From NCBI GenBank assembly GCA_963790025.1, contig CAWBMP010000004.1, forward strand, positions 1,056,001 through 1,120,000: a stretch of DNA of 64,000 nt, in the 5' to 3' direction. Below the pieces are notes generated by a model. That model saw only the letters and a list, made by a program, of their open reading frames with translations. It ran no database searches and was not told the DNA's origin. The position numbers and the translations under genes were made by a program. This stretch comes from Nitrospirota bacterium (lineage in GTDB: Bacteria; Nitrospirota; Thermodesulfovibrionia; Thermodesulfovibrionales; Dissulfurispiraceae). Shown in pieces: positions 2,865 through 34,674 of this stretch (positions are counted from its first letter, which is position 1; every line of letters begins with the position of its first letter).

Positions 2865-3716
2865 CTACTGTTTTATATACTCCCGCATGTCGATGAGATT
2901 CCTTTCCAGAATGTAATAAACGTGGTCTCCGTGTATAATCGTTTGCCTGACAGCAGGCCCAAGATACGCATCTGCATCGGCTTTTCTATCTGCTTTAATT
3001 TGTAAAATTACCTCATCATCCAGGCTTAGCCACTTGACAAACCCCAGTTCTTCAGCAATAGACTTTTCCCCTATCTTATCAACAAGTTTAACGAAACGCT
3101 CACCGTTGACCGCTTCCCTGGATCTATCAGCCAGTAGCTCACTTTCAGCTCTCTCATTACTTAACTTCTCAATTTGTTCCCGGAGTGAGTCATTCTGCTT
3201 CTGCTTTTCTGTTGCTTCGGAGGATTTCTGCTCCATTTCACCCTGCAGGACTTCAAGCCGCTTTTGGGACCCCTCGGCTTCGGCTGTAAGCACCTTCACT
3301 TTAGCCTCGATTGCAATCCTAGTATCAGTCTCTTTTTTAAGCTGGGCTTGCAAGCCATCGTGTTTTTTTTCCGTCGAAATAAGATTTTGAGTTTCAGCTT
3401 TTAAAGACGCAGCCTTTTGAATTGCCATCTTCTCAACTGGATCACAGGCAACCTTCTCAGCGGTCACAAGACAACCGCCTATCACTTCTCCGACTCCGGC
3501 TGTTCTTGTCTCCCCATCGTCGCCGACTAGCAGCACGGTATCACCACTCTGGCCTTGCACCTCCCACTTAACATGCCCAATCATTTCTTGATCCAAAAGC
3601 GTTCCGGTTCCATTAGGAGTCCGCATAGGGAAAGATGGCAGGACATCGGATAGACTTCCCCCATAGGCAGTGGTTGCCAATACCATCAGAAGCATCAGTG
3701 TTATGAATGTTTTCAT
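2865..3716 (-). CDS. Secreted protein with a PilP/GspC-like beta segment and a long coiled coil
   Basis: Signal peptide MKTFITLMLLMVLATTAYG; VLLVGDDGETRTAGVGEVIG resembles the PilP/GspC beta domain; E/K/Q-rich heptads; last gene of the pil cluster. Confidence 0.5.
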   Translation of the reverse strand: MKTFITLMLLMVLATTAYGGSLSDVLPSFPMRTPNGTGTLLDQEMIGHVKWEVQGQSGDTVLLVGDDGETRTAGVGEVIGGCLVTAEKVACDPVEKMAIQKAASLKAETQNLISTEKKHDGLQAQLKKETDTRIAIEAKVKVLTAEAEGSQKRLEVLQGEMEQKSSEATEKQKQNDSLREQIEKLSNERAESELLADRSREAVNGERFVKLVDKIGEKSIAEELGFVKWLSLDDEVILQIKADRKADADAYLGPAVRQTIIHGDHVYYILERNLIDMREYIKQ

Positions 3717-4024
3717 TGAGTTCCAACTGCTCCGGAGAAGTCGCCATTTGCAATATTACGAAAAGTCTTAGTGAGATTAATTGGCGGTATTATTTTCCCC
3801 GACGCCTCCTGGTATATCAACTCTGTCATCACTCCAACAGCACGTGATTGCTCTTCATCGAGCACATAGGAATAGCACTTTTTCAGGGCAATATTCAGGT
3901 CGTCTACTTTGGCTATATGGAATATTGTCTTCAGCCACCCCAGCACATCGCCAATTTTTATCTCCATATTAAAAAACTTTTCAGAGTTTATCTCAATACT
4001 TTTAGAATGGTCTTCTCCTGTCAT
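3713..4024 (-). CDS. Hypothetical protein in the pil operon
   Basis: AGGAGAG RBS; 4-bp overlap with the downstream gene. Confidence 0.6.
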   Translation of the reverse strand: MTGEDHSKSIEINSEKFFNMEIKIGDVLGWLKTIFHIAKVDDLNIALKKCYSYVLDEEQSRAVGVMTELIYQEASGKIIPPINLTKTFRNIANGDFSGAVGTQ

Positions 4025-4036
4025 TGCTCTCTCCTT

Positions 4037-5263
4037 TTACTTGTCTTCTTTAATCATCATAGAGGCTATTACCTCTCTCTTGTCGTCCTCTGTTATCGTT
4101 TTTTTCTTCACAAGGTCAGATATGTATTGCGAAAAGGTAATCGATGATTGCCCCATGTTTTTTTCCGTGACGAACCTCCTTTTTATTTCTTTCATGCCGT
4201 TTTCGAGGCATATCTTTTCTTTTATTATTTCGTCCGGCGTAAATATTTCATAGATGGGAATGATATTACCTGCAATGGTCAGATACAGATAGTGGGACAC
4301 AATGGCACGCAGGCTCCTAGCGAGCAGGTTCTTGGCATCCCCCATTACCGCCATCATTATAGACAGCGCCTCCAATGCGTCCTTGGCATGCAGGGTGGCC
4401 AATGTCAGATGTCCCCTGCTGGCGGTATCGATCAACTCGCGTATCTCATCTTCGGTCTTCACTTCCGAAAACATGACTACAGATGGGGCCTTCCGTAAAA
4501 GATTATACTTTGCCGTCTGAAACATCGTCATGTTATCCTGCTCTCTTATATGTACTCCCAGTTCCCGCTGCTCCACCAGTGCCCTTGTCTGTATAAACCG
4601 ATATTCGATCGGGTTTTCGTACGTGAGTATGATTCCATCAATCCTCATGGCCATATACATTATTTCGCTTGCTATTGCAGTTGTTTTCCCGCTTCCAGTC
4701 GGGCCTATATGGAGGATAAGCCCTCCGCTATTGATTTGCCCTACCTTGTATAACGGACCATTGTCATTAGGCATTGTCCTCTCTCTTATCAGGGACTGAA
4801 ACCACCTCCTGTAAAAGAGCGGATACTGCAGCCCCTCGAACTCGGGGATCTCGAAGTCAAGATACCTGATACTGAGACCTACCCCCATTTCACATCTGGA
4901 GTAGTTGATCCGCAATATACCTATGCCGTATACGGCAACGGAAAAGTCTATTGAGGACATGCTGTCTATATCGTTGGGGCCTTTCCCCAATAAGTTGTAA
5001 ACGAGGCGGTTGATATCATCTTCGGAAGGCTGGACAATCCTGCCGTCAATTTCGACCATGACCTTAGGAAGGGGCGTCACTACTTCTATCGGCTGGGATT
5101 CCCTTATCACAATATCGGTGATCCTCCGGCGCTGCTTCAACGCTACTATCTCGCTAATAAACCTGGCAAACCATTTGTGTTCCCCCAGTTTGTGCTCAAG
5201 TTCCTCTATCGCCTTGTCCGGATCCCTGTGGTTAAAACCGAAATGAAGCTTGTTATTAGTCAC
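4037..5263 (-). CDS. pilT: Divergent PilT/PilU-family retraction ATPase
   Basis: DFSVA..G.LRINY N-domain motif, Walker A GPTGSGKTT, TYENPIEY, GHLTLATLHA His box. Confidence 0.8.
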   Translation of the reverse strand: MTNNKLHFGFNHRDPDKAIEELEHKLGEHKWFARFISEIVALKQRRRITDIVIRESQPIEVVTPLPKVMVEIDGRIVQPSEDDINRLVYNLLGKGPNDIDSMSSIDFSVAVYGIGILRINYSRCEMGVGLSIRYLDFEIPEFEGLQYPLFYRRWFQSLIRERTMPNDNGPLYKVGQINSGGLILHIGPTGSGKTTAIASEIMYMAMRIDGIILTYENPIEYRFIQTRALVEQRELGVHIREQDNMTMFQTAKYNLLRKAPSVVMFSEVKTEDEIRELIDTASRGHLTLATLHAKDALEALSIMMAVMGDAKNLLARSLRAIVSHYLYLTIAGNIIPIYEIFTPDEIIKEKICLENGMKEIKRRFVTEKNMGQSSITFSQYISDLVKKKTITEDDKREVIASMMIKEDK

Positions 5264-5287
5264 CCGTATTTCTCCATTTAAAACGCG

Positions 5288-7171
5288 CTATATTTCACCA
5301 ACGCGCGATTTTTCGACCAGACCGTCTTTGAGCCTCTCAAGAAATATTATTTTCTTTGTCTTGCCGAGATCATTTTTTAGAACTTCATTCTTGATATCAG
5401 TTGGATTTACGGTCTTATTGACAACCTCGCTTATGAATTCCTGCGTGGGTATAAAATAATCGTAAATTACTGTCCTGCCCTTGTATCCCGCGTGGCACTT
5501 CCCACAGCCCTTCTTATTTCTCTTAAATCCCCGGCATGTAAAAGCGATTAACTCATCTTTTTCAATTTTGGAGAGCGCGTTCAGGTACTTCACGTCGTGT
5601 TGTGTGAATCCGATTTCGTTTTCTTCCTTGCAGTGTTCACAGAGCCTCGGAAGTAGGAGCTGGTTTAAAGACAGGAATATCAGCCTCGCAGATACATGCT
5701 TCGGCACATGGAACATCTCCTCGATCGCACTATAGATCTCGAAGGAACTCTTGATGTGCAGCGTGGTGAATATCAATTGACCGGCGTTTGACTGCTCTAT
5801 CATAGCCTCTGTCAGCCCTTCTGTTTTTCTCCATTCCCCGATAAACACTACATCATAATCGCCGCGCTTGAATGACTTTATATATTGCTCGAATCCCATC
5901 TTCTTCTTGTCCTCATCATTTGGAGGCTCAAATATCTGGTGTTGAATGATATTAGGTCTGTCTAAAATACATTCTATCGGGTCCTCGACAGTCCCTATTT
6001 TCTTTGTGGGGTCCAATGCCGGCAGTATGTTCAGTACTGTCGTGGACTTACCTGAATTCACCACCCCGCTTATAACGCCAACGCCGAATTTGCGGTGTGT
6101 TGCGGCTTCAACCGAGACGGCGTCCGACTCTAAAAAACCCAAATTCAATAGGTTGCTCTTCATGTTTGAAGATATCGGAAGTGCCCTTTGGGAAAGGATT
6201 CTGATCGTTGTATCCATATGCTCAGTCAGACGTCCGTCGGGAACAAGCTCAAGCCTCAAGCCCACACCCATATCCTCCAACTCGATTTTTGCCGCCTGAG
6301 AGACCCTCGTTTCGTCCGGGTTGAAGCCACCCTTGGTGAAGTCGTTCGCATTTGTTCTGAGCAACGATGTAAACTGCAGTCCTTGTTCCAGGTTCATATA
6401 AAAATCTTTCATCTCAATAAACCTGCCGTCTATCCGGAAAAATACCCGGTAACGATCTTTCTTTGGCACAATATGTATGTCCGAAGCATTGTGCCGCCGG
6501 GCTTCTTCTACCATGTCCCTAAGCGAAAAATTAACAATGTCGTTTTTTTCTTCTGTCTTAGGTGGCGCCGTTTCCAATGAAAGATTTATGCACTTATCAT
6601 AAGGCACAAGTATCTGAATATCCACCGTGTTCCGAGGGTAGTACACCGGGGTCACCATTATCCGGCTTTCGCCCTCTTTGCAGAAATATATGCGCCCGCC
6701 GCTTAGTAATATCTCTTTGTCTTCGTAGTCGACTATTATTTTATCGCGACCCAGGGCCTTGATAATATTTCTTAATACCTCACAACTCTCCTGGAAAGTC
6801 ATAACGCCGAGGTCGTTCAGCGTCTTGATTATGTGCCGGTCCTTGGCGTCAGCTTTTTTGAGTACCGCGTCGTGGTATTTGTCTTCCCCAACCTTCTCGA
6901 TAATCCCATTCATAAAATGCTTGTAAAAATCGTCCCTTACCTTCTCGCCGCCACGTTTGCCTTTGTGAAGTTCATCTACTGCCCTCTTGACTGCTTCAAG
7001 AGGGCAGTACCCTTGTTCAACTATTATTTCCCCGATTAACTTCCTCGTACCATCGTCCTTCAACTGACGCTGTGTCTTAATGGCATTATCAAGCTGTTCC
7101 TGCGTAATAATGTTGTCGCGGACAAGTATCCGCCCTGTTATAAGTAATTGTGAACCAGCCTGTTTTACCAT
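5288..7171 (-). CDS. pilB: PilB/GspE-family assembly ATPase with N-terminal MshEN-like motif
   Basis: ASDIHIVP, RIDG, Walker A GVVNSGKST, TVEDPIE, TTLH, CEHC...CGKC Zn motif, GYKGRT. Confidence 0.88.
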   Translation of the reverse strand: MVKQAGSQLLITGRILVRDNIITQEQLDNAIKTQRQLKDDGTRKLIGEIIVEQGYCPLEAVKRAVDELHKGKRGGEKVRDDFYKHFMNGIIEKVGEDKYHDAVLKKADAKDRHIIKTLNDLGVMTFQESCEVLRNIIKALGRDKIIVDYEDKEILLSGGRIYFCKEGESRIMVTPVYYPRNTVDIQILVPYDKCINLSLETAPPKTEEKNDIVNFSLRDMVEEARRHNASDIHIVPKKDRYRVFFRIDGRFIEMKDFYMNLEQGLQFTSLLRTNANDFTKGGFNPDETRVSQAAKIELEDMGVGLRLELVPDGRLTEHMDTTIRILSQRALPISSNMKSNLLNLGFLESDAVSVEAATHRKFGVGVISGVVNSGKSTTVLNILPALDPTKKIGTVEDPIECILDRPNIIQHQIFEPPNDEDKKKMGFEQYIKSFKRGDYDVVFIGEWRKTEGLTEAMIEQSNAGQLIFTTLHIKSSFEIYSAIEEMFHVPKHVSARLIFLSLNQLLLPRLCEHCKEENEIGFTQHDVKYLNALSKIEKDELIAFTCRGFKRNKKGCGKCHAGYKGRTVIYDYFIPTQEFISEVVNKTVNPTDIKNEVLKNDLGKTKKIIFLERLKDGLVEKSRVGEI

Positions 7172-9205: not shown

Positions 9206-10267
9206 TCAATGCCCCGCTCCCCCTTTGACCTGCGTGAGTGCACCGACAATAGTCATAAGGACATACACAACCAGCCCTACCGGCAGGATTGTAAGAACGG
9301 TAAGCAGTTTACTGAACGTGCCTGTAATGCCGCTCACAGTCTTTTCCACGTCCATCATCCTTTTAGCGACGATGGCCGAAATGGTTGTTTCTTCCCCGCT
9401 AGATTTGGACGAGGTTTTCAAAAGAGCAATTTCCACAGGGGTCAGATAATAAGAGAGCACCTTCGTCAACCCCTCTGAATTTTTCTCATGTGATTTCAGG
9501 ACGTATATTCTCTTATACAGCTTTTTGTCCTTCACCTTCTTAAAAAAGTCAATCGCATCCACAGACCCCAGCCCCAGGCCTACAAACGTCTTAATTATCA
9601 GCAAGTAGTTGGCCGATTTGACATACTTGTAAACTCTGTTCCAAACCGGCACTCTGTCAGGGAATCTGGCGAGAATAAAATGCACTAAGGCTATAGGGAT
9701 AAATGCGATAAAAAAGTAGCAACTCTTTATAAGAGCAATATTCGACAGATCCGCCTTTGGCATACTCTTGAAATTGTTATAAAAGGTGTTGACAGCCACA
9801 TAAGAAATAATCGCGACCATCACATACATAACGGTCGGCTCTATCAAGGCGCTATGCATTTTTGATTCAGCCTTATCAATTACTTGCTTCATGTTTACAT
9901 AATCGGACAATATTTCACTTGCTATCACCTGTTTACTTTCCGCACTTTTCAGTATGGCTATGATGTCTGCCGGAAGAATGTTTTTGTATGCAGCACTCGG
10001 CTTCTTCCCCTGAGACAGGAGCTTTATCGCACTCTCAAGATATACGTTGTCTTTCATGTCCTGGACAACATTCCGTAAAACGTCAAGCCTGGACAATCCG
10101 GATGTAATAATAGATATCTCGACACTATAGATCACTTCGATTGCCTCCTTCTTTTTGCCGACGGAGGCAATCTCGCGAAGCCATTCCCTCATTCCCGCAA
10201 TATCTATATTTACAAAACTAAACATATCGCTTAAATCATCGCACAACCCCATCAATTTTATTCTCAT
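9206..10267 (-). CDS. pilC: PilC/GspF-family inner-membrane platform protein (divergent)
   Basis: Two repeated soluble domains with TM helices, ILKSAE/ALIEP motifs, operon context; start set to ATG 10267. Confidence 0.65.
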   Translation of the reverse strand: MRIKLMGLCDDLSDMFSFVNIDIAGMREWLREIASVGKKKEAIEVIYSVEISIITSGLSRLDVLRNVVQDMKDNVYLESAIKLLSQGKKPSAAYKNILPADIIAILKSAESKQVIASEILSDYVNMKQVIDKAESKMHSALIEPTVMYVMVAIISYVAVNTFYNNFKSMPKADLSNIALIKSCYFFIAFIPIALVHFILARFPDRVPVWNRVYKYVKSANYLLIIKTFVGLGLGSVDAIDFFKKVKDKKLYKRIYVLKSHEKNSEGLTKVLSYYLTPVEIALLKTSSKSSGEETTISAIVAKRMMDVEKTVSGITGTFSKLLTVLTILPVGLVVYVLMTIVGALTQVKGGAGH

Positions 10268-10284
10268 TCCTGTTCCCCTTATAT

Positions 10285-15373: not shown

Positions 15374-15385
15374 ACTACAGCCTCC

Positions 15386-23543: not shown

Positions 23544-23930
23544 CTAATTTAAGGATTTTGGATAATGCTGCAAATATTCTCCCTCACATTGTTCAAATAA
23601 TAAAATACTTTCAGCATATTTGAAATGTACTCTAAATATGTTTGTCTCGAGTTCACGTTGCGATGCTCCCAAAGCTCTGAATGCTTCAATATATTCATTC
23701 AGGCTTTCAAACAGCCCTTCAAGACTTTCTCTGAAAACATTACAATTCTTTTTTATGGCAATGCTTCGTTGCCTGGATTCATCTATGAGAGATTTATATT
23801 GTTCTTTGTCACTCTCAGACAGAGTTGCAATATAGTCTTCCAAATTATGATATCTCACTTCGCTCCTGTAGCATCCCAAAATTAAATGCCAAGCTGTCTG
23901 TATCCTTTTAGGCAACCGGGGCATCTTCAT
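23544..23930 (-). CDS. Hypothetical helical protein; start uncertain because it overlaps the riboswitch-like element
   Basis: 128-aa ORF co-oriented with MCP; no family recognised. Confidence 0.4.
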   Translation of the reverse strand: MKMPRLPKRIQTAWHLILGCYRSEVRYHNLEDYIATLSESDKEQYKSLIDESRQRSIAIKKNCNVFRESLEGLFESLNEYIEAFRALGASQRELETNIFRVHFKYAESILLFEQCEGEYLQHYPKSLN

Positions 23931-23996
23931 TACAATTAAGATCCGAAGCTTTCCGCCTCCTTCCTCCTTAGGAGGGTGTCGGCCTTTGCTGCGATA
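23909..23996 (-). ncRNA. Degenerate c-di-GMP-I (GEMM)-like riboswitch
   Basis: Minus strand ...CCTCC-TAA-GGAGG..GGCGGAAAGCTTCGGATCTT..AAGATGCCCCGGTTGCC resembles the GEMM core; upstream of MCP-HDOD-cheR. Confidence 0.5.
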
Positions 23997-24088
23997 AATG
24001 AATTTTTTTGCCTATGGTATGTTAAGATAACGTATCCTGAGTATCAATATTAATTAAATATTAGGGTAATATTAGCTTAAAACTAATA

Positions 24089-24964: not shown

Positions 24965-27900
24965 CTTTATTTCCTATTGTGAACGTTACGAGAGCTTCAG
25001 TCCCTCCATCACTTATTAGTTGCAGGGTCCCCATTAGCTGCTTGGCCAAAACATCCACGAGCTGAAATCCCAGAGTAGTTGTTTCTTTATAATCAAATCC
25101 TTCCGGCAAGCCAACTCCGTTGTCTTTGATCGTCAACGCATAGGTGTTCTCCGCCCTTGTAAAATAGACGCTTAATACCCCCCTTCTATTGTCAGGGAAT
25201 GCATACTTAAAGGCATTGGTGAGGAGTTCATTAATTATTAGTCCGCATGGGACTGCCGACTCCAGGTCAAATTCTATGTCCTCAATGTTGAGGACCATTG
25301 TGATCAAGTTGTCGTCGATATGGTACAGGGCCATTATCTCCTGAATTATTGAGTTGATGTGGTCCTTAAAGTTAATGGATGATAAATCTTTTGTCCCGCA
25401 GAGTTTTTCATGCACCAAAGATATTGACTTAACCCTCTGCTGGCTCTCTTCAAATAGGTGCTTTATATTGGGGTCTTTTATAGCGTTTGCCTGCAAAGCA
25501 AGAAGGCTCGATACTACTGCCATGTTGTTCTTGACTCTGTGATGAATCTCTCTGAGAAGGGTCTCCTTTTCTCTGAGTGATTGCCTTATCTGCTTCTCGG
25601 CGTGTTTGCGATCAGTAATGTCGCGACAGATGCTTAACATGGCGGGTCTGCCTTCGTATTCAACAATGCGGCAGTTGATTTCCGTGGGAATCACCGTGCC
25701 GTCGCGTTTCATTTGAGCGGTTTCGAATATGAGTTCGCCATCTTTCTGTATCTTATTAATGCGCTGGCTCACCAGGTCTGTATATTCAGGCGTATCTAAA
25801 TCAGCTGGCTTCATCCGTAACAGTTCCTCTTTATTATAGCCAAGACGATCGCAGGCTACATTATTGGCCTCAACTATATGCCCCGGCAAATCAAGGATCA
25901 ATATCGCGTCGTTTATACTGTTGAAAAGGGATTTGAATTTTTTCTCTGATATTATTAATGCCTCTTCAGTATGTTTCCTGTCGGTGTAGTCATCGACAGC
26001 TACGATAACATTCGGCTGGCCGTCAAACTGATAAGGTTCTGCGCTGATGCTCAGCCAGCGCTGTTGGGGGATGCCACTGACAAGCAATTTGAGATTTATC
26101 AGTACCCCGTGCATTTTCGACCCTTCGGCTATTACATTTTCTATGCCTCTGCGTAAGTTGCAATCGGGACATGACATGGAGAAACCGCAGCCTCTCGGGT
26201 CCTCAAGGCTGTGAATACAACCTAACCCTCCACCGGCGCGCATCCCGATAACTTCTGCCGGCTCACGCACCACCATCCCTCTGATGGCCTCGTTTGCCCG
26301 AGTGATGACCGTCTCTCTGTTCAGCAATAGAAGACCCACAGGCGCAGCCGAGAATATTCTCAAAAAATTCTCATGGTCTTTTTTAAGCTGCCCCACTATG
26401 CGCTTGTGTTCGGTGACGTCTCTGGTTATGCCGAGCAAGGCAACAATCTCGTCTTTATCATTACGCAACGGGACCGCATGAGTTTCAAACCAAATATGCG
26501 CGCCTTTAAGACCAATAGCCTCAAACTCAAGAGTTCCTGATTCGCCTCCGAAAACATCTTCGGTCAACGACTTGAATGCCCCCCGATATTCCTCGGTCAC
26601 CAATGTATAAACACTCTGTCCTTTAATTTGCTCCAGGCAATCGGCCTCTATCATCGAAAGTCCCGCACGGTTCATTTGAAGGACCCTACCATTGGCATCG
26701 AGCAGTTTAACGCATTCCGGCTCGGTTTCAATAATTGTTTGCAGGAATTTTTCACTTTCTACAAGTGCTTTCTCGGCCCGCTTGCGTTTAGTGATGTCCT
26801 CCACCATGGTTATGAAATAAAGGGGTTCATTAGTTTCTGAACTTAGAAGGGAGACAGTTAAATTGACCCATAAAATGCCGCCACTCTTACTCAAGTAGCG
26901 TTTCTCTATTGAAAAAAACAATATCTTTCTCTTGAGCAACTGCTCGGCCTGTTCAGTATCCTTCCCTGCATCGTCAGGATAGGTAATGTCACAGACTGAT
27001 TTTGTAGTGAGTTCTTCTTCTGAGTAACCGACGAGCTGACACATTCTGTCGTTTACCTTTTTGTACCGTAAGTCCAGCCCAACCATTGCCATTCCGAGCG
27101 GTCCATTTTCAAAGATCTTCCGGAACCGTTCTTCGGTCTCGCGAAGAGTCTGTTCGGCACGTTTGCGTTCGGCAATATTTTGTCTGAGCTCTTTATTAAG
27201 CTTTATAATTGTCAGATACCGCCATAATGCCATGCCGCCAACAGTTATAAACAGAAAAATGCCACCCACGGTGACTATTCTCTTAGTTGTCCAATAAGGG
27301 ATCGGCTTGCCGTACCATTTCATATAAATCTGCTGATATTCAGGACCTCCCACAAAACCTCCTATCGTCCTGTTCAGCAGTTCAAGCAATGCAACGTTGT
27401 CCTTGCGCACTGCAATGCACCTCTTAGCTTCGTCAAGTGGCTTACCGACCTTTTTTATGCGCCCTTCTAACCCCGACTCTCTGGCAAGTTCCAGAATTAT
27501 TGATTCCGGGCCTGCGAACAAATCGATCTTCCCGGCTAAAAGAGCAAAAAGAGCTTCCTGTAAATTATCATTTTGGACAAAACTTATATTTGGGCGATCC
27601 TTCAGCTTGTCATAGGTAGCGCTTTTTTTCAAAAGTCCCACCGTAATTCCCTCGGGCAATCTATCTGCATCTATACTGCTTTGAGAACGAACAAAAAAGG
27701 AGATGTAGGATATATCAATCGGAGTGGTAAACAGGAGGTCCTTTTTGCGCTCTTCGCTGATAATCATACCACTGAGGTCCGCTTCGCCTCTTTCCACCTT
27801 ATCTATTATCGACGGCCAGCTATTGTCACACATATAATATACTTGAAGCCCCGCACGTTCAGCGACTTTGTCCATAACATCAACAAAAAAGCCTGTTGGT

Positions 27901-28094
27901 TTGCCGGTTCTATTATCCAAAAAATTTGTTGGCGGATAATCACAGCGGATGACAGCAATAACCTTCTTCGGAACAGAAGACGCATGATAAGGTGCAGTCC
28001 GGGCATTTTCACCTGCTGATTGAGCAGCAGATACAAGTAATGACAGTATAGCTAAAATTAGTGATATTTTAGAGCTATGAGATTTACCTTTCAC
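24936..28094 (-). CDS. Sensor kinase: periplasmic solute-binding (family 3) domain, TM, four PAS domains, HisKA_2/HATPase
   Basis: DYPP..G..TGFFVDV PBPb motif; repeated PAS/PAC ends (EDITKRK, RDVTEHK, DDYTDRK, RDITDRK); EIHHRVKNN; NELLTNAFKYAF; DNGVG. Confidence 0.92.
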   Translation of the reverse strand: MKGKSHSSKISLILAILSLLVSAAQSAGENARTAPYHASSVPKKVIAVIRCDYPPTNFLDNRTGKPTGFFVDVMDKVAERAGLQVYYMCDNSWPSIIDKVERGEADLSGMIISEERKKDLLFTTPIDISYISFFVRSQSSIDADRLPEGITVGLLKKSATYDKLKDRPNISFVQNDNLQEALFALLAGKIDLFAGPESIILELARESGLEGRIKKVGKPLDEAKRCIAVRKDNVALLELLNRTIGGFVGGPEYQQIYMKWYGKPIPYWTTKRIVTVGGIFLFITVGGMALWRYLTIIKLNKELRQNIAERKRAEQTLRETEERFRKIFENGPLGMAMVGLDLRYKKVNDRMCQLVGYSEEELTTKSVCDITYPDDAGKDTEQAEQLLKRKILFFSIEKRYLSKSGGILWVNLTVSLLSSETNEPLYFITMVEDITKRKRAEKALVESEKFLQTIIETEPECVKLLDANGRVLQMNRAGLSMIEADCLEQIKGQSVYTLVTEEYRGAFKSLTEDVFGGESGTLEFEAIGLKGAHIWFETHAVPLRNDKDEIVALLGITRDVTEHKRIVGQLKKDHENFLRIFSAAPVGLLLLNRETVITRANEAIRGMVVREPAEVIGMRAGGGLGCIHSLEDPRGCGFSMSCPDCNLRRGIENVIAEGSKMHGVLINLKLLVSGIPQQRWLSISAEPYQFDGQPNVIVAVDDYTDRKHTEEALIISEKKFKSLFNSINDAILILDLPGHIVEANNVACDRLGYNKEELLRMKPADLDTPEYTDLVSQRINKIQKDGELIFETAQMKRDGTVIPTEINCRIVEYEGRPAMLSICRDITDRKHAEKQIRQSLREKETLLREIHHRVKNNMAVVSSLLALQANAIKDPNIKHLFEESQQRVKSISLVHEKLCGTKDLSSINFKDHINSIIQEIMALYHIDDNLITMVLNIEDIEFDLESAVPCGLIINELLTNAFKYAFPDNRRGVLSVYFTRAENTYALTIKDNGVGLPEGFDYKETTTLGFQLVDVLAKQLMGTLQLISDGGTEALVTFTIGNKDGKEENTDS

Positions 28095-28494
28095 ACCAAT
28101 TCCTCATCAGAAGCGTTTGACTTTACTTAAAAAACCTCTCATTAGTCCAAGTTGCAACAAAATTTCCTTCAATATATTAACAAATAAACATAGTTGTCAA
28201 CACGGGTGGAATTTCCAAACCTTCCAGCTATAATCGATAGTGAAAAATGAAGATTCGCCGAGTAGTTTAAAGAGAAACTATTGCATATTGATGAGCCGTA
28301 CTAGATGAATATTTCGTTATGTAGAACTATCTGAGCTGAACCGCCACTGTGCACATTTTAGAAGAATTTAGTAAACAATGTGTAACTGTTTCCAATCGGA
28401 ACTCTCAGGGCAAACAGGTTCGTAGCGAGTGTTGGTTACCGGAAATATATCGCGGAAGATGATAGCTCGGCATATCCTGCGGTTGTTTAACCTC

Positions 28495-29679
28495 TTATGT
28501 GCCGACTTCTGACTGAAGACCAGGAACAGAATAAATAACGACCCTGTTTCGGCCAGAGCGCTTTGCCTGGTACAGAGCATAGTCGGCAGCAGCAACAAGT
28601 TTCGCCTTTAGGCTGTGCAAGATCGGGTCTTCCTCTTCTTCCGTTAGCCCAGGAGAATTGTCCGGCTTTTCTTCGGTCCACCATTCAGTTAGAGATTGAG
28701 CTACGCCGACGCTCACAGTAACATTCTCTATTCTTTCTCTCTCGTTAGAAGCACCTACTATCGGGAGGGGTTGTTTTGCTATGCGATCACGTATGGTCTC
28801 GGCCGTTGCGGCAGCATCTTCCATGCTTATAGACTGGAAGACCACAGCGAACTCCTCGCCGCCATATCGAGCTGGAATGCCACCTTTGCTAACAGCAACT
28901 TCCTTCATAAGTGCGGCTACTATTCGCAGCGCATTGTCTCCGGTTTGATGGCCATACGTATCGTTGAAGCGTTTGAAATGGTCGATGTCCATCATGAGCA
29001 GACAGATAATTTCCCCTGACGATCTGGCTGTCTTAAAAAGCTTGCCTAGTTGTTCATCAAAACTGCGTCTGTTATAGACCTGTGTCAGCTTATCAATAGA
29101 GGCGATCTTTTCCAGGGCAACGACTTTTTTCTTCCATTGATCGGTTTCTTCAGCCTTCTCCCGCCAGGCAGCAGCCTCTTTTACAAATTTATCCATCATC
29201 TTGGCAGCAGTGGAACTGACCTCCGAAATCATTTTTGCTTTATCCTCATACTGCTCAATGATGCTGATAGTCTCCACTTTCATATTGTCAATATCGGCAA
29301 GTTTTTCTGTAATTCCCGAGCGTCCAAACTCTATGAGGCGCAAATAATTTGTTAGCATCTCCTGAAAGAGTTTCTTCTCAGCTGCCCGAAGTTGCCATTC
29401 TTTCTCTTCGATTTGTTGTTTGACAAAAGCTTCTTCCTTATGAGGTAAGGCATAAATGTCCAGTATTTCAGGAAAGATGGTGTTGTAGAAGGCGGTTGAG
29501 AAGTCTTTTGTCTGTAATATCCGCTTTAGCAGGCTGTGAAACATCTGCTTTTGCTTTTCCGAGAAACAGTCCATTTCCCCGACATCGCGCAAAAAACCTA
29601 AGATGCCGCGCCACTTTATATCCTTGGGGACGCCTGCATCTTCAAAAAGTCGACAAACTTCATTACAGGGTTTTGTCAT
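28495..29679 (-). CDS. Diguanylate cyclase (coiled coil plus GGDEF)
   Basis: DKLTQVYNRR, DIDHFKRFNDTYGHQTGD, ARYGGEEF, AAD.ALYQAK.SGRN. Confidence 0.93.
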   Translation of the reverse strand: MTKPCNEVCRLFEDAGVPKDIKWRGILGFLRDVGEMDCFSEKQKQMFHSLLKRILQTKDFSTAFYNTIFPEILDIYALPHKEEAFVKQQIEEKEWQLRAAEKKLFQEMLTNYLRLIEFGRSGITEKLADIDNMKVETISIIEQYEDKAKMISEVSSTAAKMMDKFVKEAAAWREKAEETDQWKKKVVALEKIASIDKLTQVYNRRSFDEQLGKLFKTARSSGEIICLLMMDIDHFKRFNDTYGHQTGDNALRIVAALMKEVAVSKGGIPARYGGEEFAVVFQSISMEDAAATAETIRDRIAKQPLPIVGASNERERIENVTVSVGVAQSLTEWWTEEKPDNSPGLTEEEEDPILHSLKAKLVAAADYALYQAKRSGRNRVVIYSVPGLQSEVGT

Positions 29680-30184
29680 AATGGATTTCTTCCTTACCGC
29701 CCATGTGCCGTTTAACTATAAGTAGCTATGCTTATGAAAAATCCTTCTCTACCAAAAACATTTTTTGTTTTGCCGTTATTACTTGAAAAGACATTGGAAT
29801 TTTATCATAAATCTCATATCTTTGGGTATGAAAAAAGTGAGGAATCATTCCCAAGCCGCATGGAAAATCTCAACTGGAACTAGACACGTGTTCATCTCTA
29901 TTTTTTCAAAAAGGTTTTTTTAGAAGTTCCGTAGGGGCCAATAGCGCTGGAGCAGTCAAGATTTCTGGGGAAATCTCTCCCCATTCCCCAAATCACTGAA
30001 AGTCTTGGTTTCCAAAAAAAAGAAATTTTGAGATTTTGATAGTAATGAGGTTAAGCGTCATTCCGCAAGCTTCCTTACCTCATCCCCAACTACGGCAAAG
30101 CCCCTGCCCTGCTCGCCGTGCATAGTACAAAAAAGAACTTCTCACTACATGTTTCGCAGCGAAATCCATTGTTCCCCTGCCGGG

Positions 30185-30304
30185 GGTGGCACGGTTTGCA
30201 CCGGAACGGGAGGCAAGTTTGCAATGGAATCGGTGGCAGGTTTAAATCGGAACAGCCGGAAGGAATCAAGCGGAACAGGTGGCAGAACTGGTTCGGAAAA
30301 TGCA
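30185..30304 (+). mobile_element. Orphan IS21-family-type terminal repeat array (IS end, no transposase)
   Basis: Five tandem ~23-bp units GGTGGC-N~10-CGGAA ending ...CGGAAAATGCA, 9 bp from the traB stop. Confidence 0.7.
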
Positions 30305-30313
30305 CCTGCCTCA

Positions 30314-31564
30314 TTACTTTATCCACGTCATCTCCCTCATATTTGACCCATGATAATCATCAGGTATATGCACTGCACCCGAGAATACAATTTGCACCCT
30401 GTCCGTTGGTTTGATCTCAACGAATGGCAGAAACTTATCTGCCCTTTGTTCCAATTTTGAGGCGAGTTTTTCGGCAGCATTACTGGCACCACTGTAGAGA
30501 CCTTCGCGTATGGCACTGCCGGTAATGCTCGAAGTGACGACACCTGTTGAAGCGCTTACGGAAGTCGTCGTTTCCCCTATGGCTAATCCCTTTGAAATCC
30601 CGGAGGCAAAAGAAGCTAAAATAAGCTCTGCAATATAGGGACCTGATCTCTCATCTACTCTTCCTTTCAGGCCGATGAGTCCATCGCTCAAATCGACAAT
30701 ATACCCGTCAACAGCCTGCTCAATATACTCTCCGCCTATATAACAGTTTAAAGTTTTAGCCTGCATATATACCCTTGCAGCTGATAGATCTGCACTTGCG
30801 GCAGCAATGATTGCACAATCCTTTATCGGGCGGCTTGTTGCATTTGGGCCAATAGATGCAGAGGTGATATCTATAACAACAGGATAGGGAAGTCCCGAGA
30901 CTGCAGCTACGCCATGCGAGAGCGAACCTAGTGCACGGGAGCCTCCCAGCAGGTTTTTCTCACGCTCCTTTTTATTCTCCTGAGAAGTTCCTGCAGTATA
31001 AAGTTGTGTACGCTGGGTTGCCGGCAATGCCGGCGGGGGCAATACCCTTTGCATTGGCTGATAAGCTGGAATATTGGCCTTTTTTTGTTCTTGTGCTGCC
31101 ATAAAGTTCACAGCTTCGCCAGGGCTTGTAAAAGCCGGGGCTCGTTTCTGCGCGTCAGCCGCCGAAAGCTGGCCCCCGGATCCAGCCCATAACTGCTGTG
31201 CGGATACCGGCGGTTGAAGTTTAATTTCTTCCTTCAGCCCCTTGCCTTTCAGTTCCTGATTCTCCTTCGTAAGATTTAAAATCTTTTCCTGGTCAGCTTT
31301 GCCTTTGTCGCTCAACAACCTGTTTGCTTCAGCAATATCTTCCCTTGATTGGTTTTGGCTTTTTATGTTATATTTTTTTGCGCCATTCAATCCGGCAGGT
31401 CCGGCTATTAGAGCATGAATAACGGCAACACTGATAAAAATTATCACAATAGTTGCCATAGTTCTCGGCAGACTGCCAAAAAAAAATCTGCGAATGCCGG
31501 ATCCCCGTCTTTCAGGTGATATTTTTTCCATTTCAATCGGTTCCGACGCATTCATATCATGCAT
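30314..31564 (-). CDS. traB: TraB/VirB10-like T4SS core protein
   Basis: TM, coiled coil, Pro-rich linker; C.II..A.ADLS..RVY....L.C; DGYIVD..DG.IGLKGRV. Confidence 0.85.
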   Translation of the reverse strand: MHDMNASEPIEMEKISPERRGSGIRRFFFGSLPRTMATIVIIFISVAVIHALIAGPAGLNGAKKYNIKSQNQSREDIAEANRLLSDKGKADQEKILNLTKENQELKGKGLKEEIKLQPPVSAQQLWAGSGGQLSAADAQKRAPAFTSPGEAVNFMAAQEQKKANIPAYQPMQRVLPPPALPATQRTQLYTAGTSQENKKEREKNLLGGSRALGSLSHGVAAVSGLPYPVVIDITSASIGPNATSRPIKDCAIIAAASADLSAARVYMQAKTLNCYIGGEYIEQAVDGYIVDLSDGLIGLKGRVDERSGPYIAELILASFASGISKGLAIGETTTSVSASTGVVTSSITGSAIREGLYSGASNAAEKLASKLEQRADKFLPFVEIKPTDRVQIVFSGAVHIPDDYHGSNMREMTWIK

Positions 31565-31569: not shown

Positions 31570-32388
31570 TTATTGTCCTCCGGGGATAATAACTAGGTAA
31601 ACAAGCATTTTATGCTGCCCCGCAGCTGCCTTTTCAGCATCCCGCGGAGTCGGGGCCATATAGCCGCCCTCTCTTTCAAATGCCACAGCCACTACATTAG
31701 GACCTACAAAGTCCTGCTCCGATATTACCAATGGCAGAATTGACTTATTCTTCAGTTCAACAATAAAACCTGTAAAAAAGGAAGATAGATATACTTTTTT
31801 AACTATCGCTTCCATTAGACCGTTCTTACTAAATTTTTTTAGGAGTTGGTCTCGTTCAGAAACGGAAAATCCTGCAAGCGGCTCATCCCCCGCCATTGCG
31901 ACCGTCAGCGTTACAGGATCTATATCCTTAGTTAAACGCTGCTCTTCCTGGACCTTTTGTTCAATGACCTGCCTCATATCCATTATATCAACAACAAAGT
32001 CGTTGCTTTTAGACGATATTTTAACCAGAACAGGATATGTAACACCCGGGGCCGAGACGAATATCTGCGTTTCCGTCAAATCTGCTGTAAGTATTTTGAC
32101 AAAAACTGTCTTTTCTCTTATCTGAACATCAATGCTCTCGGTGGCCTTTATGACTTCCTGTATCGGAAGCGGAAAATTAACCTGTACTGCCTTATTCACT
32201 CCCGTATTTATCAGAATGACCTCGCCGTTCCATTCAACAAATCGCTTACCGTCCATCGCGATGGCAGAAGAAGGCAAAAGGCCAAAGGGCAAAGAAGGGC
32301 TAAAGTCTAAAGGCAAAAAACAAATAACTAAAGGCAGAAAGAAAACGGAAAACAAACTTCTATATTTTATTTTTTGTTTTTTATTCAA
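31570..32388 (-). CDS. traK: TraK-like T4SS outer-membrane core protein
   Basis: Signal peptide, V.FP.PI, TQIFV....TYP, LKN....LV.SEQDF..P.VVAVA; between traE and traB. Confidence 0.7.
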   Translation of the reverse strand: MNKKQKIKYRSLFSVFFLPLVICFLPLDFSPSLPFGLLPSSAIAMDGKRFVEWNGEVILINTGVNKAVQVNFPLPIQEVIKATESIDVQIREKTVFVKILTADLTETQIFVSAPGVTYPVLVKISSKSNDFVVDIMDMRQVIEQKVQEEQRLTKDIDPVTLTVAMAGDEPLAGFSVSERDQLLKKFSKNGLMEAIVKKVYLSSFFTGFIVELKNKSILPLVISEQDFVGPNVVAVAFEREGGYMAPTPRDAEKAAAGQHKMLVYLVIIPGGQ

Positions 32389-32463: not shown

Positions 32464-33066
32464 TCATTCATGTTCTGACAGTTGTCCCTTTCTCATTTCT
32501 GTAATATGAAACCCGAAAATATTCACATCATTAGGTGCTGTAGCCTCCAAAAAAACCTCATAATAGTACCTCTCTGTCTTCTTGACCTCTCCTGCACCCA
32601 GCACACTTCTCTTGCCCTTAATAGTAACTATGTATGCCTTTTCATCGATCTTCCTGATTTCATGTGTTTCAGGAGAAAATAAAAAACTGATATCGCCGGC
32701 CCTTAATGAATCGATAACTATTTTCTGCTCCTCATAGAACTTTGATCTGTATACAGGGCTCAGATATCTCGAGGACCGCTTTGTCACAAGATCGGCAGTA
32801 TCGGATGTGACGGATGCAATAAGCAAAACAAAATTTTCAGCTATACTCAACACTACATCCTCTATTGCCTCGCCGGGTGTATAAATTCCCGGCTTGGCCC
32901 CGGGGACTATATATGCGCGCCTTGGGGTCTGAGATGATTTTACTAGGGCAAATGCCAGGAATACAACAACGACCAGAAGAATGATCGACATCATTTTCCA
33001 CGCTGCTCCCTCGCCGGCATACTTCGCAATCAGAATCCACGATTTTTTTTCAGAACAAAAAGACAT
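32464..33066 (-). CDS. traE: TraE-like T4SS protein
   Basis: One N-terminal TM, YIVPG, YLSP, NIFGFHIT C-terminal motif; between traL and traK. Confidence 0.75.
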   Translation of the reverse strand: MSFCSEKKSWILIAKYAGEGAAWKMMSIILLVVVVFLAFALVKSSQTPRRAYIVPGAKPGIYTPGEAIEDVVLSIAENFVLLIASVTSDTADLVTKRSSRYLSPVYRSKFYEEQKIVIDSLRAGDISFLFSPETHEIRKIDEKAYIVTIKGKRSVLGAGEVKKTERYYYEVFLEATAPNDVNIFGFHITEMRKGQLSEHE

Positions 33067-33075: not shown

Positions 33076-33393
33076 TTAGGGTGAATACAATCTTTTCCCC
33101 GGCGCCATAAGATGGTTAGCCCGCATTTTGTCATTCCACACTCCATACTTATGCATAATATGGCGTATATATCCTACCGGCCTTACTTCGGCAATTTTTT
33201 TAAGTATAAAAGCAATAAACAGCCCGATCATGACTGGGATAATTATGCCGAAGATCGACTGCTGGAATCCGGCGCTCTTAAAGACAACTATAAGCATCGA
33301 GACAAAAACTATAACAATGGCCAGATCATCCGCCTGCAGGCCAAAAAAAAGCAGCGGCATGTTGAGTGCTTTAGGTACACGGTAACGCATCAC
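33076..33393 (-). CDS. traL: TraL (VirB3-like)
   Basis: YRVPKALNMPLLFFGLQADD, two TM, GYIRH..HKYG. Confidence 0.8.
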   Translation of the reverse strand: MMRYRVPKALNMPLLFFGLQADDLAIVIVFVSMLIVVFKSAGFQQSIFGIIIPVMIGLFIAFILKKIAEVRPVGYIRHIMHKYGVWNDKMRANHLMAPGKRLYSP

Positions 33394-33399: not shown

Positions 33400-33726
33400 C
33401 TACTGGCCGGTCACTGCTTTTGCAGGAACATTTGCCACATCAGGAAATAAGAGGCCTATAAATGCAATTAGAACATGAGGAGCAACACCGACCACAATAC
33501 ATCCAAACAGAATGCCTATGTTCTTCCCGCTCATAAAGTATTCGACGATGCCGATTATTCCCGCCGCTATAGTAAACAGTGCACCATAGATGCCAGTGAT
33601 GGCGCCTTTAGCCGTGCCATACACATCATTTAAAGCCATTGCATAAGATGAATCTGCATTAGCCAGAATACCAATACCTACAATCACCCCTACCGCAACC
33701 CAATCCACAGCCGTAAACTTGCTCAC
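33400..33726 (-). CDS. traA: TraA/TrbC/VirB2-type conjugative pilin
   Basis: Signal peptide ending SSYA then two hydrophobic helices; directly upstream of traL. Confidence 0.65.
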   Translation of the reverse strand: MSKFTAVDWVAVGVIVGIGILANADSSYAMALNDVYGTAKGAITGIYGALFTIAAGIIGIVEYFMSGKNIGILFGCIVVGVAPHVLIAFIGLLFPDVANVPAKAVTGQ

Positions 33727-33735
33727 GTTGTCCTC

Positions 33736-34089
33736 CTATTTTGAGTTGATAATATCTTCGAGGAAGTAATCTCCCTCGATCTTGAAGGGGATGTAATCCC
33801 CTGTAAGCTTTTCATTTCTCGGGTAAAGATATGCTTCGAGGTCTTTTTCAATAAGCTCTATATCCGTCAGCAATTTGCCGTAATCAAAACTCGGCAGGTT
33901 ATTGGCCGATCTCGATTTTTCGGTGTAAAAAAGCGCCTGTTCCAGAGAAAAATAGGCCCTTTGAAGATAAGAAAGCGACCTTGCCTCACTATAGTTCCTT
34001 GTCTGAGGCATTTCGCTCAAAGACTCACCATAGATAGGCGTCGCTAAAAAGAGTGCGCTGCAAATAAAAGGTAATATATATTTTTTCAT
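33736..34089 (-). CDS. RAQPRD-family ICE protein
   Basis: Signal peptide; FDYGKLLTDIELIEKDLEAYLYPR matches the family FDY.RL..D...I..G...YL.P motif. Confidence 0.65.
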   Translation of the reverse strand: MKKYILPFICSALFLATPIYGESLSEMPQTRNYSEARSLSYLQRAYFSLEQALFYTEKSRSANNLPSFDYGKLLTDIELIEKDLEAYLYPRNEKLTGDYIPFKIEGDYFLEDIINSK

Positions 34090-34110
34090 CTGTATCTCCG
34101 TGATATAATA

Positions 34111-34674
34111 TTACGTGGCTGAATATTGATATGATGTTTGTTCAAATACTATCAGGTTTTCAGCTATAATCCTTCCGTTCCCGATGAGGCCCTGTACGAG
34201 CACTACATCTCCCGTCCGTATTTTAGACATTTTCAACTTCATCATTTCTTCTGATGTTTCTATGACATGAGTGACAATAAATGTTTTAGTCTTTCTGGGC
34301 TCTTTCGTTTCCATGACAAATCTCATGTATTCATCTACCGAAAATGGGGCTTTTTTGACAGTTCCTATCAAAGTAGCATCATTAATATCCTGGTTCCCAA
34401 AATTAATCAACTCGACAACTATTATTGATCTGGAGCCAGATATCGGACCATTGACATAAACAATATCGTCGATCCTTATTTTCGAGAGTATCTCCATCAG
34501 TCGCTCATCTTTTGTTTCTATTAGATGGGGGCAAGCCAAAACTTTATTCCCTTTTAAAACCCTGGTCTCCATTGTAAACGTCATTCTGTCATGCTCGCGA
34601 GCCGCCGGCGAGGTGACTCTTCCGGTCAGTCTGTTGTCATTTACATTTCTGTTGACTTCAAAATTATTCCGCAT
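34111..34674 (-). CDS. Tandem OB-fold (SSB/PriB-like) protein
   Basis: Two internal ~80-aa repeats: ND..L.G.V....M.F.MET....H.IET....SKIR..D.V.V.G.I. Confidence 0.6.
   Translation of the reverse strand: MRNNFEVNRNVNDNRLTGRVTSPAAREHDRMTFTMETRVLKGNKVLACPHLIETKDERLMEILSKIRIDDIVYVNGPISGSRSIIVVELINFGNQDINDATLIGTVKKAPFSVDEYMRFVMETKEPRKTKTFIVTHVIETSEEMMKLKMSKIRTGDVVLVQGLIGNGRIIAENLIVFEQTSYQYSAT

Follow-up and report, generated by a model that had tools for sequence, protein, structure and literature searches.

In the chromosome of an uncultured member of the Nitrospirota (GenBank assembly GCA_963790025.1, contig CAWBMP010000004.1), a run of genes resembling the envelope part of an F-type type IV secretion system (T4SS) leads into a secretin gene and a set of type IV pilus (T4P) genes. 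The window analysed here is the whole 64-kb stretch, in which the genes of this island lie on the minus strand between positions 2865 and 34674. The explanation that we tentatively prefer is that the tra part, chromosomal and vertically inherited, may descend from an F-type (mating-pair formation type F, MPF-F-like) T4SS that lost its motors and was domesticated; together with the neighbouring pilus, itself linked to cyclic di-GMP (c-di-GMP), it would probably act as a scaffold in the envelope. Such a derivative would have kept the envelope parts TraA-like, TraL/VirB3, TraE/VirB8, TraK/VirB9, TraB/VirB10 and TraV/VirB7 and, within the DNA examined, would have lost all motor and DNA-processing functions, VirB4/TraC being left as an N-terminal-like protein of about 213 aa, here called p213.

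The order of transcription is p187, RAQPRD-like, TraA-like, TraL, TraE, TraK, TraB, a block of 11,069 bp, TraV, p213, p182, o105, secretin 2, the higBA genes and secretin 1, followed on the pilus side by p258, p324, a 431-aa prepilin-like protein, the platform protein, a Gly-rich protein, p199, p173, PilB, PilT, p103 and p283 (Table 1). This co-oriented course from tra through secretin to pil genes had been noticed in an earlier reading of the sequence alone (hereafter the sequence-only reading) and is borne out, as is the gene-to-gene overlap that it described from traV to secretin 2: TraV and p213 have base 18825 in common, p213 (18184-18825) overlaps p182 (17700-18191), p182 and o105 overlap by 8 nt, and the stop of o105 overlaps the conserved Met start of secretin 2 by 1 nt, at 17390. 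Translational coupling in the window extends from the tra run into secretin 2. Every tra open reading frame (ORF) of the window is intact, again as first described. The order L-E-K-B-V is that of the complete F-type system on a plasmid of Candidatus Manganitrophus (Nitrospirota), which reads TraL-TraE-TraK-TraB-x-TraV-TraC and is equipped with TraF, TraH, TraN, TraU, TrbC, TraG and a coupling protein. Because four of the five Tra matches pass the Pfam gathering cut-offs (all but TraL) and their order matches that of the Manganitrophus system, chance does not account for this canonical F-type series.

Profile matches point to the presence of an outer-membrane core of TraK/VirB9, TraB/VirB10 and TraV/VirB7, and of the inner-membrane parts TraL/VirB3 and TraE/VirB8 in canonical order. 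The family profile of TraB matches the F-plasmid TraB structures 7spb and 7okn (1e-9), and its nearest plasmid homologue is the TraB of Ca. Manganitrophus (34.9 % identity, E 9e-13). When nine family profiles were compared by hhalign with 30 proteins of the F-type tra region of the Candidatus Manganitrophus plasmid CP114554, which served as the query set, TraV and TraC_N were recovered and TraL weakly so, while TraE and TraK were not; the best match of TraV was TraV itself (probability 79.8, E 1.5e-5). TraE shows two predicted hydrophobic segments, at residues 17 and 68. In a set of 5.8 billion proteins, the TraB family has 15 members (62-100 % identity) and TraL has 11 homologues (63-94 % identity). 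Two labels that the sequence-only reading gave to the beginning of the run stand in part. The RAQPRD-like gene has a sub-threshold match to the family; its N-terminus is hydrophobic by eye and is read as a signal peptide, a hydrophobicity scan giving no transmembrane segment. Position and three hydrophobic segments are the basis for the TraA label, but no match in Pfam or NCBIfam is significant, the best being TraA_TIGR at E 0.74. For p187, Pfam and NCBIfam gave no family and a protein-atlas search nothing usable. Opened to E<=10, the Pfam and NCBIfam scans returned nothing above noise for the small proteins without a family.

Directly after TraV, in the place of TraC in the Manganitrophus system, lies p213, which is probably what remains of the N-terminal domain of VirB4/TraC. 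An exhaustive hidden Markov model (HMM) search of 1.84 billion representatives recovered its relatives in four clusters only, all of 209-217 aa, with identities down to 33 %, one of them with Candidatus Nitrobium versatile. Because the form of about 213 aa is kept in clusters down to this identity, the motor-less state appears to be old. With the sequences of the four clusters, AlphaFold2 produced a model with a predicted local distance difference test score (pLDDT) of 86.9 and a predicted template modelling score (pTM) of 0.84, whose top Foldseek match in the PDB is TrwK/VirB4 of R388 (8rtb_B; probability 0.97, E 1.2e-2, template modelling score TMq 0.47). VirB4 chains make up 9 of 14 rows among the matches listed, to rank 16. 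By hhalign against 11 TraC sequences, residues 4-27 of p213 align to TraC residues 19-43 (E 1.9e-4), and its best match among the 30 Manganitrophus proteins is TraC_N. From these three directions the label ‘traC (N only)’ of the sequence-only reading is weakly supported. No Walker A motif is present in p213, and its profile found nothing significant by sequence in the PDB and nothing usable in a protein-atlas search.

The functions that would drive or prime DNA transfer were sought in several ways. A Pfam profile scan of 69 ORFs (37 of the island and 32 of the flanks) gave no match in the 64 kb to a VirB4/TraC ATPase, a coupling protein, a relaxase, TraF, TraG, TraH, TraN, TraU, TrbC or an integrase. 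An HMM built from 11 full-length TraC sequences, which as a control picks up VirB4 ATPase domains in the PDB, had no match at E<=10 among the 1,474 ORFs (all six frames, 40 aa or longer) of the window and of four related loci, L001-L004 (see below). Compared with TrwK, this profile aligned the ATPase part alone, the N-terminal domains being poorly conserved between TraC and TrwK. The 30 Manganitrophus proteins, run by blastp on the same ORFs, matched TraB and TraV only; type IV coupling protein (T4CP), TraF, TraH, TraN, TraU, TrbC and TraG_N gave none at E<=0.01 in the window and the four loci. A relaxase, sought with Pfam only, was not found in the 69 window ORFs. As to the hallmarks of an integrative and conjugative element (ICE), there is no integrase family among the 69 ORFs and no tRNA gene in the 64-kb window; att repeats at the island ends were not searched for. 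Within the 64 kb, the lack of a VirB4 ATPase, T4CP, relaxase, TraG/N/U/H/F and integrase that the sequence-only reading asserted is thereby confirmed. Of the T4SS proteins, VirB4 has been called the only ubiquitous one (PMC4027160); by this mark and by those of conjugative elements, the cluster would, as far as the window and L001-L004 are concerned, be classed as neither a T4SS nor a conjugative element. The flanks of the island are housekeeping chromosome, with the nuo operon, rpsF, ssb, rubrerythrin and cytochromes.

Among the checks proposed by the sequence-only reading were a search for the same reduced gene order in relatives and an estimate of the ratio of nonsynonymous to synonymous substitutions (dN/dS) in the tra genes. 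A genome_contigs scan matched 55 stretches, of which four were confirmed as loci: L001 (21 kb), L002 (12 kb), L003 (4.5 kb) and L004 (1-20129). These, like the one named member of the TraB family, belong to Nitrospirota/Nitrospirae metagenome-assembled genomes (MAGs). The same tra run occurs in three other species (L001, L002 and L003), two of which reach secretin 1. It reads p499-p250-p187-RAQPRD-like-TraA-like-TraL-TraE-TraK-TraB-TraV-p213-p182-o105 in L001 and L002 and is mostly there in L003, which starts inside TraK on a contig of 3.9x coverage. In L001 the series goes on past secretin 1, through p258, p324, the large prepilin and the platform protein to the Gly-rich protein. Identity of the tra-like proteins between the window and L001-L003 is 59-88 %. 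Pairwise Nei-Gojobori comparison with the window gave a dN/dS of 0.04-0.26, far from 1, for eight genes in two to three species pairs: TraA-like 0.11-0.13, TraL 0.04-0.05 (88 % identity in L001 and L002), TraE 0.07-0.08, TraK 0.12-0.15 (L001 and L002), TraB 0.11, TraV 0.16-0.25, p213 0.14-0.21 and o105 0.12-0.26. The RAQPRD-like gene gave 0.20-0.22 and p187, with 75-78 % identity in L001 and L002, gave 0.12. Such ratios, obtained at a dS of about 0.6-1.6, itself near saturation, indicate purifying selection on the tra genes and exclude neutral decay. Colinear and intact in relatives (in L003 mostly so), they support the earlier suggestion that this is not simply a decayed ICE.

At the far end of the run, the labels of the sequence-only reading fared less well. 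Its ‘traW-like’ gene, p182, has no support, neither a family nor a Manganitrophus match being found; dN/dS is about 0.40 and the AlphaFold2 model is poor (pLDDT 47.7). The stretch between p182 and secretin 2 was also considered as conserved non-coding DNA, a candidate that was rejected, the lipoprotein gene o105 lying there, covered by a longer TTG-initiated frame of secretin 2. This ‘TraV-like’ gene is a real and conserved lipoprotein gene (66-68 % identity in L001-L003; no family match in Pfam or NCBIfam), but its likeness to TraV is weak: the Manganitrophus TraV matches the L002 copy with a blastp E of 0.005 in a small database, and in a profile comparison of o105 with TraV the lipobox alone matched.

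Secretin 2 scores with the MshL model (2e-47, 161.6 bits vs 250.2) and with PilN-IVB (1.5e-33, 116.1 vs 287.65), both below the cut-offs, and the MshL/MshE/PilN-type scores of secretin 1 are lower still. Secretin 1 has 57 % identity in L001 and is present at the contig end of L002. The ‘two-secretin’ pilus of the sequence-only reading is not a conserved trait, since L001-L003 are without the body of secretin 2. They carry after o105 an ORF of 82-96 aa that is colinear with about the first 75 residues of secretin 2. The colinear part takes in the signal peptide and an ADEEYMLLL motif and extends as far as an IIPDSS-like strand, after which the ORF stops. Within L001-L003 this small ORF is under some constraint (dN/dS 0.14-0.43); against the N-terminus in the window it is unusually diverged, with a dN of about 0.5 vs 0.19 for the neighbouring o105. 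Residues 151-586 of the long ORF of secretin 2, on the other hand, have 80-87 % identity to the secretin of L004. Two histories fit: a tra-linked secretin may be ancestral, its body having been deleted in the lineage of L001-L003, or the small ORF may have been fused in frame to the secretin of a neighbouring pilus operon. The higBA pair between the two secretin genes had no tblastn match in L001-L004 and is window-specific. In all three loci that span the junction (the window, L001 and L002), the tra genes run into secretin 1.

Judged by its profile matches and motifs, the pilus set comprises the core of a type IV pilus, namely a secretin, a PilB-type ATPase, a platform protein (weak T2SSF match) and prepilin-like proteins with the motif for N-terminal methylation. 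The system is divergent, with scores well under the equivalog cut-offs; as to membership of the mannose-sensitive haemagglutinin (MSHA) or PilN-type pili, the MshL, MshE and PilN equivalog cut-offs were not reached. The MshE-related c-di-GMP motif of PilB scores 3.6e-8 (33.1 bits vs a cut-off of 38). The 431-aa prepilin-like protein has the N-terminal string GFSFIEL and 62 % identity in L001, where p258, p324 and the platform protein have 32 %, 44 % and 55 %, respectively. No peptidase A24 match was found in the 69 window ORFs scanned, and the prepilin peptidase may sit elsewhere in the genome.

A block of signalling genes lies between TraB and TraV. Because L001, L002 and L003 join TraB directly to TraV, the block, the ‘cargo’ of the sequence-only reading, is an insertion specific to the window genome. 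At the DNA level, colinearity with the relatives is lost precisely at the stop of TraB and is back some 60 nt after the start of TraV, and no flanking repeats were found around the block. At the insertion boundary, a 78-aa ORF without family match (30090-30326, minus strand), probably no gene, overlaps the end of TraB and contains a terminator-like hairpin at 30164-30140. Inside the block there is a sub-threshold full-model match to the c-di-GMP-I-GGC riboswitch aptamer (23907-23992, minus strand; 26 bits, where the gathering score is 59; E 0.043 for 40 kb, 8.5e-4 for 801 bp). It is located upstream of the genes for MCP, HDOD and CheR/PilZ, and a doubtful ORF of 128 aa (23544-23930) begins within it. 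A promoter and terminator scan gave counts not above those of shuffles (37 vs 37.0 and 22 vs 17.7).

How could such a remnant work? TraK, TraV and TraB build the outer-membrane core complex of F (PMC8770708), and by analogy with solved systems those of the cluster would still assemble into a ring that spans the periplasm. VirB4 of R388 has its N-terminal domain wrapped by VirB3 and is also bound by the VirB8 tails (PMC9259494); TraL, TraE and p213 may in the same manner still form an inner-membrane base. This motor-less scaffold could then have been co-opted for the neighbouring secretin/pilus machine, powered by PilB and PilT. Because PilB carries an MshE-type motif and GGDEF, PilZ, HDOD, methyl-accepting chemotaxis protein (MCP) and CheR genes are in the locus, the pilus would, in the window genome, be tied to c-di-GMP and chemosensory signalling, and surface attachment or cell contact would be likelier than DNA transfer.

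A number of observations weigh against this preferred explanation. The tie between tra and pilus genes appears to be one of genetic adjacency only. The junction takes insertions and looks like a hot-spot for them, higBA having entered in the window and an opposite-strand gene of a Uma2-family endonuclease in L001; because of this gene between the modules, co-transcription of tra and pilus genes in L001 is unlikely. The picture of the sequence-only reading is weakened by the finding of two intact secretins in the window only, by the window-specific nature of the signalling insertion and by the loss of tra in L004, and the working T4SS/T4P chimera with two secretins that it suggested is in part contradicted. 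The modules are separable, L001-L003 keeping tra without the body of secretin 2 and L004 keeping a secretin without tra. In L004 the tra part is destroyed: of TraB only the last 43 aa are left and of TraV the first 46 aa, and some 9 kb with radical-SAM genes, part of a restriction enzyme and an IS256/Mutator-family transposase have taken its place. What L004 retains is the response regulator (92 % identity), the secretin-2 homologue, which is read as two ORFs that overlap and has a distinct signal peptide of its own, and another pilus set. This set codes for a 542-aa MshE-like ATPase, a platform protein and two further proteins, and has no detectable similarity to the pilus accessory proteins of the window. 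Pilus proteins also diverge faster than tra proteins (32-62 % vs 59-88 % identity). Because the modules are separable, the junction is insertion-prone and the evolutionary rates differ, we argue that any coupling between them is loose. As for the tra part itself, usable DNA from relatives comes from three loci only, the TraK of L003 carries a stop, which may be an assembly error on its low-coverage contig, and the near-saturated dS makes the dN/dS ratios rough. The profiles of TraK, TraE, TraV and o105 found no solved homologue by sequence search of the PDB. With p213, Foldseek gave no match at E<=0.001 and a template modelling score of 0.47, and its hhalign alignment to TraC covers 24 columns at a probability of 47 %; the lines of evidence for a derivation from VirB4 are concordant and individually weak. 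Finally, a VirB4, a T4CP or a relaxase may be encoded elsewhere in the same 1.7-Mb contig.

With coupling that is loose if it exists at all, other explanations keep substantial weight. One of them sees two unrelated machines side by side, the legacy of a conjugative element that had both a T4SS and a mating pilus; the pilus would work by itself, and the tra part would be completed in trans by a VirB4, a coupling protein and a relaxase from another place in the genome. T4P clusters beside T4SS genes are indeed known from IncI plasmids and PAPI-1 (PMC12857230, PMC5297154, PMC9045228), and both the separability of the modules and their different rates of evolution would be expected. A conserved stand-alone VirB4 N-terminal domain of about 213 aa is nevertheless hard to square with a full VirB4 acting on the same TraL/TraE, TraG/VirB6 and TraF/H/N/U/TrbC are missing too, in the window as in the loci, and the 64 kb contain no mobile-element boundary, integrase or tRNA. 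We hold this account to be improbable. About as doubtful is a tra module that functions alone and motor-less, for example as a tether between outer and inner membrane, a passive channel, an entry-exclusion device or a receptor, next to a pilus that is there for historical reasons. It would account for purifying selection on tra in L001-L003 despite the lack of a secretin 2 body, for the opposite-strand insertion that parts the modules in L001, and for the module having conserved upstream genes of its own (p499, p250 and p187). It leaves aside that secretin 1 is adjacent in all three spanning loci and that in the window the translational coupling of tra reaches secretin 2, with a colinear ORF remnant at the same place in L001-L003; moreover, we know of no precedent for a stand-alone motor-less T4SS envelope role, which counts against it.

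A stronger version of the co-option just described would be a single chimeric machine, in which the TraV/K/B ring and a TraL/TraE/p213 hub are integrated with the secretin and T4P and PilB/PilT replace the VirB4 motor. Although we regard this as unlikely, such a chimera would be the mirror image of the proposal made for PAPI-1 and the first T4SS-like apparatus to work without VirB4. At the other extreme, the cluster could be what is left of an integrated conjugative element, in decay and no longer functional, its apparent conservation reflecting too few and too close genomes. The remains of TraB and TraV in L004 next to a transposase and a secretin in two ORFs, the stop in the L003 TraK, the missing secretin 2 body in L001-L003, the 11-kb insertion that splits the run in the window and the small size of the family (15 TraB homologues) all go in this direction. 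They are opposed by a dN/dS of 0.04-0.26 at a dS around 1 for eight genes in two to three species pairs, by tra ORFs that are all intact in the window and by a length of p213 kept in lineages down to 33 % identity, and the L003 stop lies on a 3.9x contig where it may be an assembly error. Decay is in our view very unlikely.

Upstream of the run, p499 (without significant match in a sequence search of the PDB) and its partner p250 are followed by a response regulator that, at this place, occurs in the window and L004 only and is absent in L001 and L002. The edge of the cluster is marked by a divergent helix-turn-helix (HTH) gene, in a region that is colinear in L001 and L002 by blastn; in a PHROGs scan, this gene alone had regulator matches. 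At the upstream edge in L001 (3035-4285), a gene for an ImmA/IrrE-type M78 peptidase adjoins an XRE repressor-like gene, a pairing characteristic of mobile-element regulation. Of the two, the XRE gene (38156-38890) is kept in the window, where no M78 peptidase was found.

Table 1. Features of the island and its upstream edge, in order of transcription of the minus-strand genes; scores are given against the family cut-off where two values are shown
Feature	Coordinates	Strand	Evidence
XRE/CI-like HTH regulator, divergent, upstream edge	38156..38890	+	Pfam HTH_3 1.9e-9; PHROG transcriptional regulator 7.3e-8
p499, HTH_7-containing	36394..37893	-	Pfam HTH_7 5.2e-5; 68 % identity in L001, L002; dN/dS 0.15-0.16
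p250, partner of p499	35666..36418	-	No family match; 68-72 % identity in L001, L002; dN/dS 0.17
GacA/UvrY-type response regulator (REC + LuxR HTH)	34872..35504	-	Response_reg 3.3e-29; GerE 3.1e-19
p187, first gene of the tra run	34111..34674	-	No family match; no predicted transmembrane segment or N-terminal signal
RAQPRD-like	33736..34089	-	NCBIfam ICE_RAQPRD E 8.2e-5, 22.7 bits vs 50; Pfam 0.063
TraA/VirB2-like, 108-aa candidate pilin	33400..33726	-	Three hydrophobic segments; place just before TraL
TraL (VirB3-like), two transmembrane segments	33076..33393	-	Pfam TraL 1.2e-4, 22.8 bits vs 24.4; TIGR02762 5.7e-4
TraE (VirB8-like) membrane protein	32464..33066	-	Pfam TraE 5e-8, 33.0 bits vs 24.8
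TraK (VirB9-like) outer-ring subunit	31570..32388	-	Pfam TraK_C 1.9e-7, 31.6 bits vs 28.5
TraB (VirB10-like)	30314..31564	-	Pfam TrbI 1.2e-15, 58.2 bits vs 35
Signalling block, 11,069 bp	19245..30313	-	Pfam, NCBIfam
GGDEF cyclase	28495-29679	-	Pfam/NCBIfam
SBP-PAS-HisKA_2 histidine kinase	24936-28094	-	Pfam/NCBIfam
REC-LuxR response regulator	24089-24964	-	Pfam/NCBIfam
MCP (Cache-HAMP)	21765-23435	-	Pfam/NCBIfam
HDOD protein	20878-21753	-	Pfam/NCBIfam
CheR-PilZ fusion	19694-20854	-	Pfam/NCBIfam
TraV (VirB7-like) lipoprotein	18825..19244	-	Pfam TraV 1.2e-7, 33.2 bits vs 21; lipobox LSGC
p213, VirB4/TraC N-terminal-domain-like, without ATPase domain	18184..18825	-	Structure model, profile, position
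p182, 163 aa from conserved Met, probably periplasmic	17700..18191	-	N-terminal hydrophobic segment; conserved in L001-L003
o105, conserved 105-aa lipoprotein, pilotin-like or TraV-like	17390..17707	-	Lipobox AAYGC
Secretin 2, 540 aa from conserved Met, MshL/PilN-like	15768..17390	-	Pfam Secretin 5.6e-34
higB-higA toxin-antitoxin, between secretin genes	15074..15664	-	HigB-like_toxin 1e-17; HigA TIGR02607 1.6e-28
Secretin 1, head of conserved pilus set ‘T4P-A’	13251..14813	-	Pfam Secretin 2.6e-21
p258 and p324, candidate assembly/alignment proteins	11528..13279	-	One transmembrane segment each; no family
431-aa prepilin-like, candidate tip/adhesin pilin	10285..11580	-	N_methyl 1.1e-4, 22.1 bits vs 21.2
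Platform protein, GspF/PilC-like	9206..10309	-	T2SSF 5.5e-4, 20.3 bits vs 25.2; three transmembrane segments
Gly-rich secreted protein	8376-9161	-	Gly_rich_2 9.9e-6; also in L001
p199, 199-aa prepilin-like	7776-8375	-	N-terminal string GYNLIEF read directly; no family match
p173	7217-7738	-	No family match
PilB-type extension ATPase, predicted MshE-type c-di-GMP-binding N-terminus	5288..7171	-	T2SSE 3.5e-44
PilT/PilU-like ATPase	4037..5263	-	pilT_fam 2.3e-44, 152 bits vs 319; T2SSE 7.9e-22
p103 and p283, last genes of the run	2865..4024	-	No family; p283 with N-terminal hydrophobic segment

Elsewhere in the window, the nuo (complex I) operon at 45714-55825 (minus strand) reads A-B-C-D-H-I-J-K-L-M-N, with NuoH directly after NuoD; NuoE, F and G were not among the ORFs scanned, and the operon looks like one for an 11-subunit complex without the NADH-oxidising module. 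At 56023-58732 (minus strand), a 579-aa protein with caspase (Peptidase_C14) and CARDB domains is encoded next to a DUF4384 protein. DUF507 extends over two overlapping ORFs at 59953-60539 (minus strand), matching profile positions 1-93 and 95-181, which would be a split gene or a frameshift.

VirB4 is treated as the one universal and defining component of T4SS, and detection tools key on it. If a motor-less part-set has long been kept under selection, T4SS envelope modules can be domesticated for other work, and surveys anchored on VirB4 would miss them. The Nitrospirota cluster would then be a natural test case for the combination of T4SS and T4P machineries, a question raised for hybrids of the PAPI-1 type. 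Even if the adjacency is merely historical, it would still document clearly how, in an uncultured lineage, a conjugative system was reduced step by step. No VirB4-less T4SS, no Tra+Pil hybrid of this kind with pilus genes joined to a VirB4-less tra cluster, and no account of this locus in Nitrospirae was found in the literature, most subscription papers being outside the search.

Among known systems, the F-type T4SS (F/pED208 and CP114554) shares with the cluster the families and the order TraL-TraE-TraK-TraB-TraV, followed by a TraC-derived gene. In contrast to these systems, the cluster is without the VirB4 ATPase domain, T4CP, relaxase, TraG/VirB6 and TraF/H/N/U/TrbC, is chromosomal, and runs into secretin and T4P genes; of the Manganitrophus and window TraB, the C-terminal domain alone can be aligned (35 % identity). 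The N-terminal domain of R388 TrwK provides the best structural matches of the p213 model, and TraL/VirB3 and TraE/VirB8 are in the same cluster. It comprises about 385 residues (15-400, PMC9259494), whereas p213 has 213 aa and no C-terminal ATPase, with a template modelling score of 0.47. With the c-di-GMP-controlled pili of the MSHA type, the pilus part has in common MshL as the best secretin model, the MshE-type N-terminus of PilB and the GGDEF/PilZ/HDOD genes. It differs from them in that it begins with the secretin gene, reaches none of the family cut-offs and has tra-like genes attached; no equivalents of MshI-K, M or N were recognised in the window. The type IVb pili of PAPI-1 and of IncI plasmids (R64, TP114) likewise have a T4P cluster beside T4SS genes, and the large prepilin-like protein and the PilN-like secretin similarity recall them, whereas the window secretins score below the PilN cut-off, a PilT-like ATPase is present and a search for transfer functions gave none. 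A chimeric T4SS/T4P pathway, in which VirB4 and VirD4 work with the T4P, has been put forward for PAPI-1 (PMC12857230). The cluster described here is the converse case: where PAPI-1 keeps the two ATPases with a T4P, it keeps the T4SS envelope without both of them.

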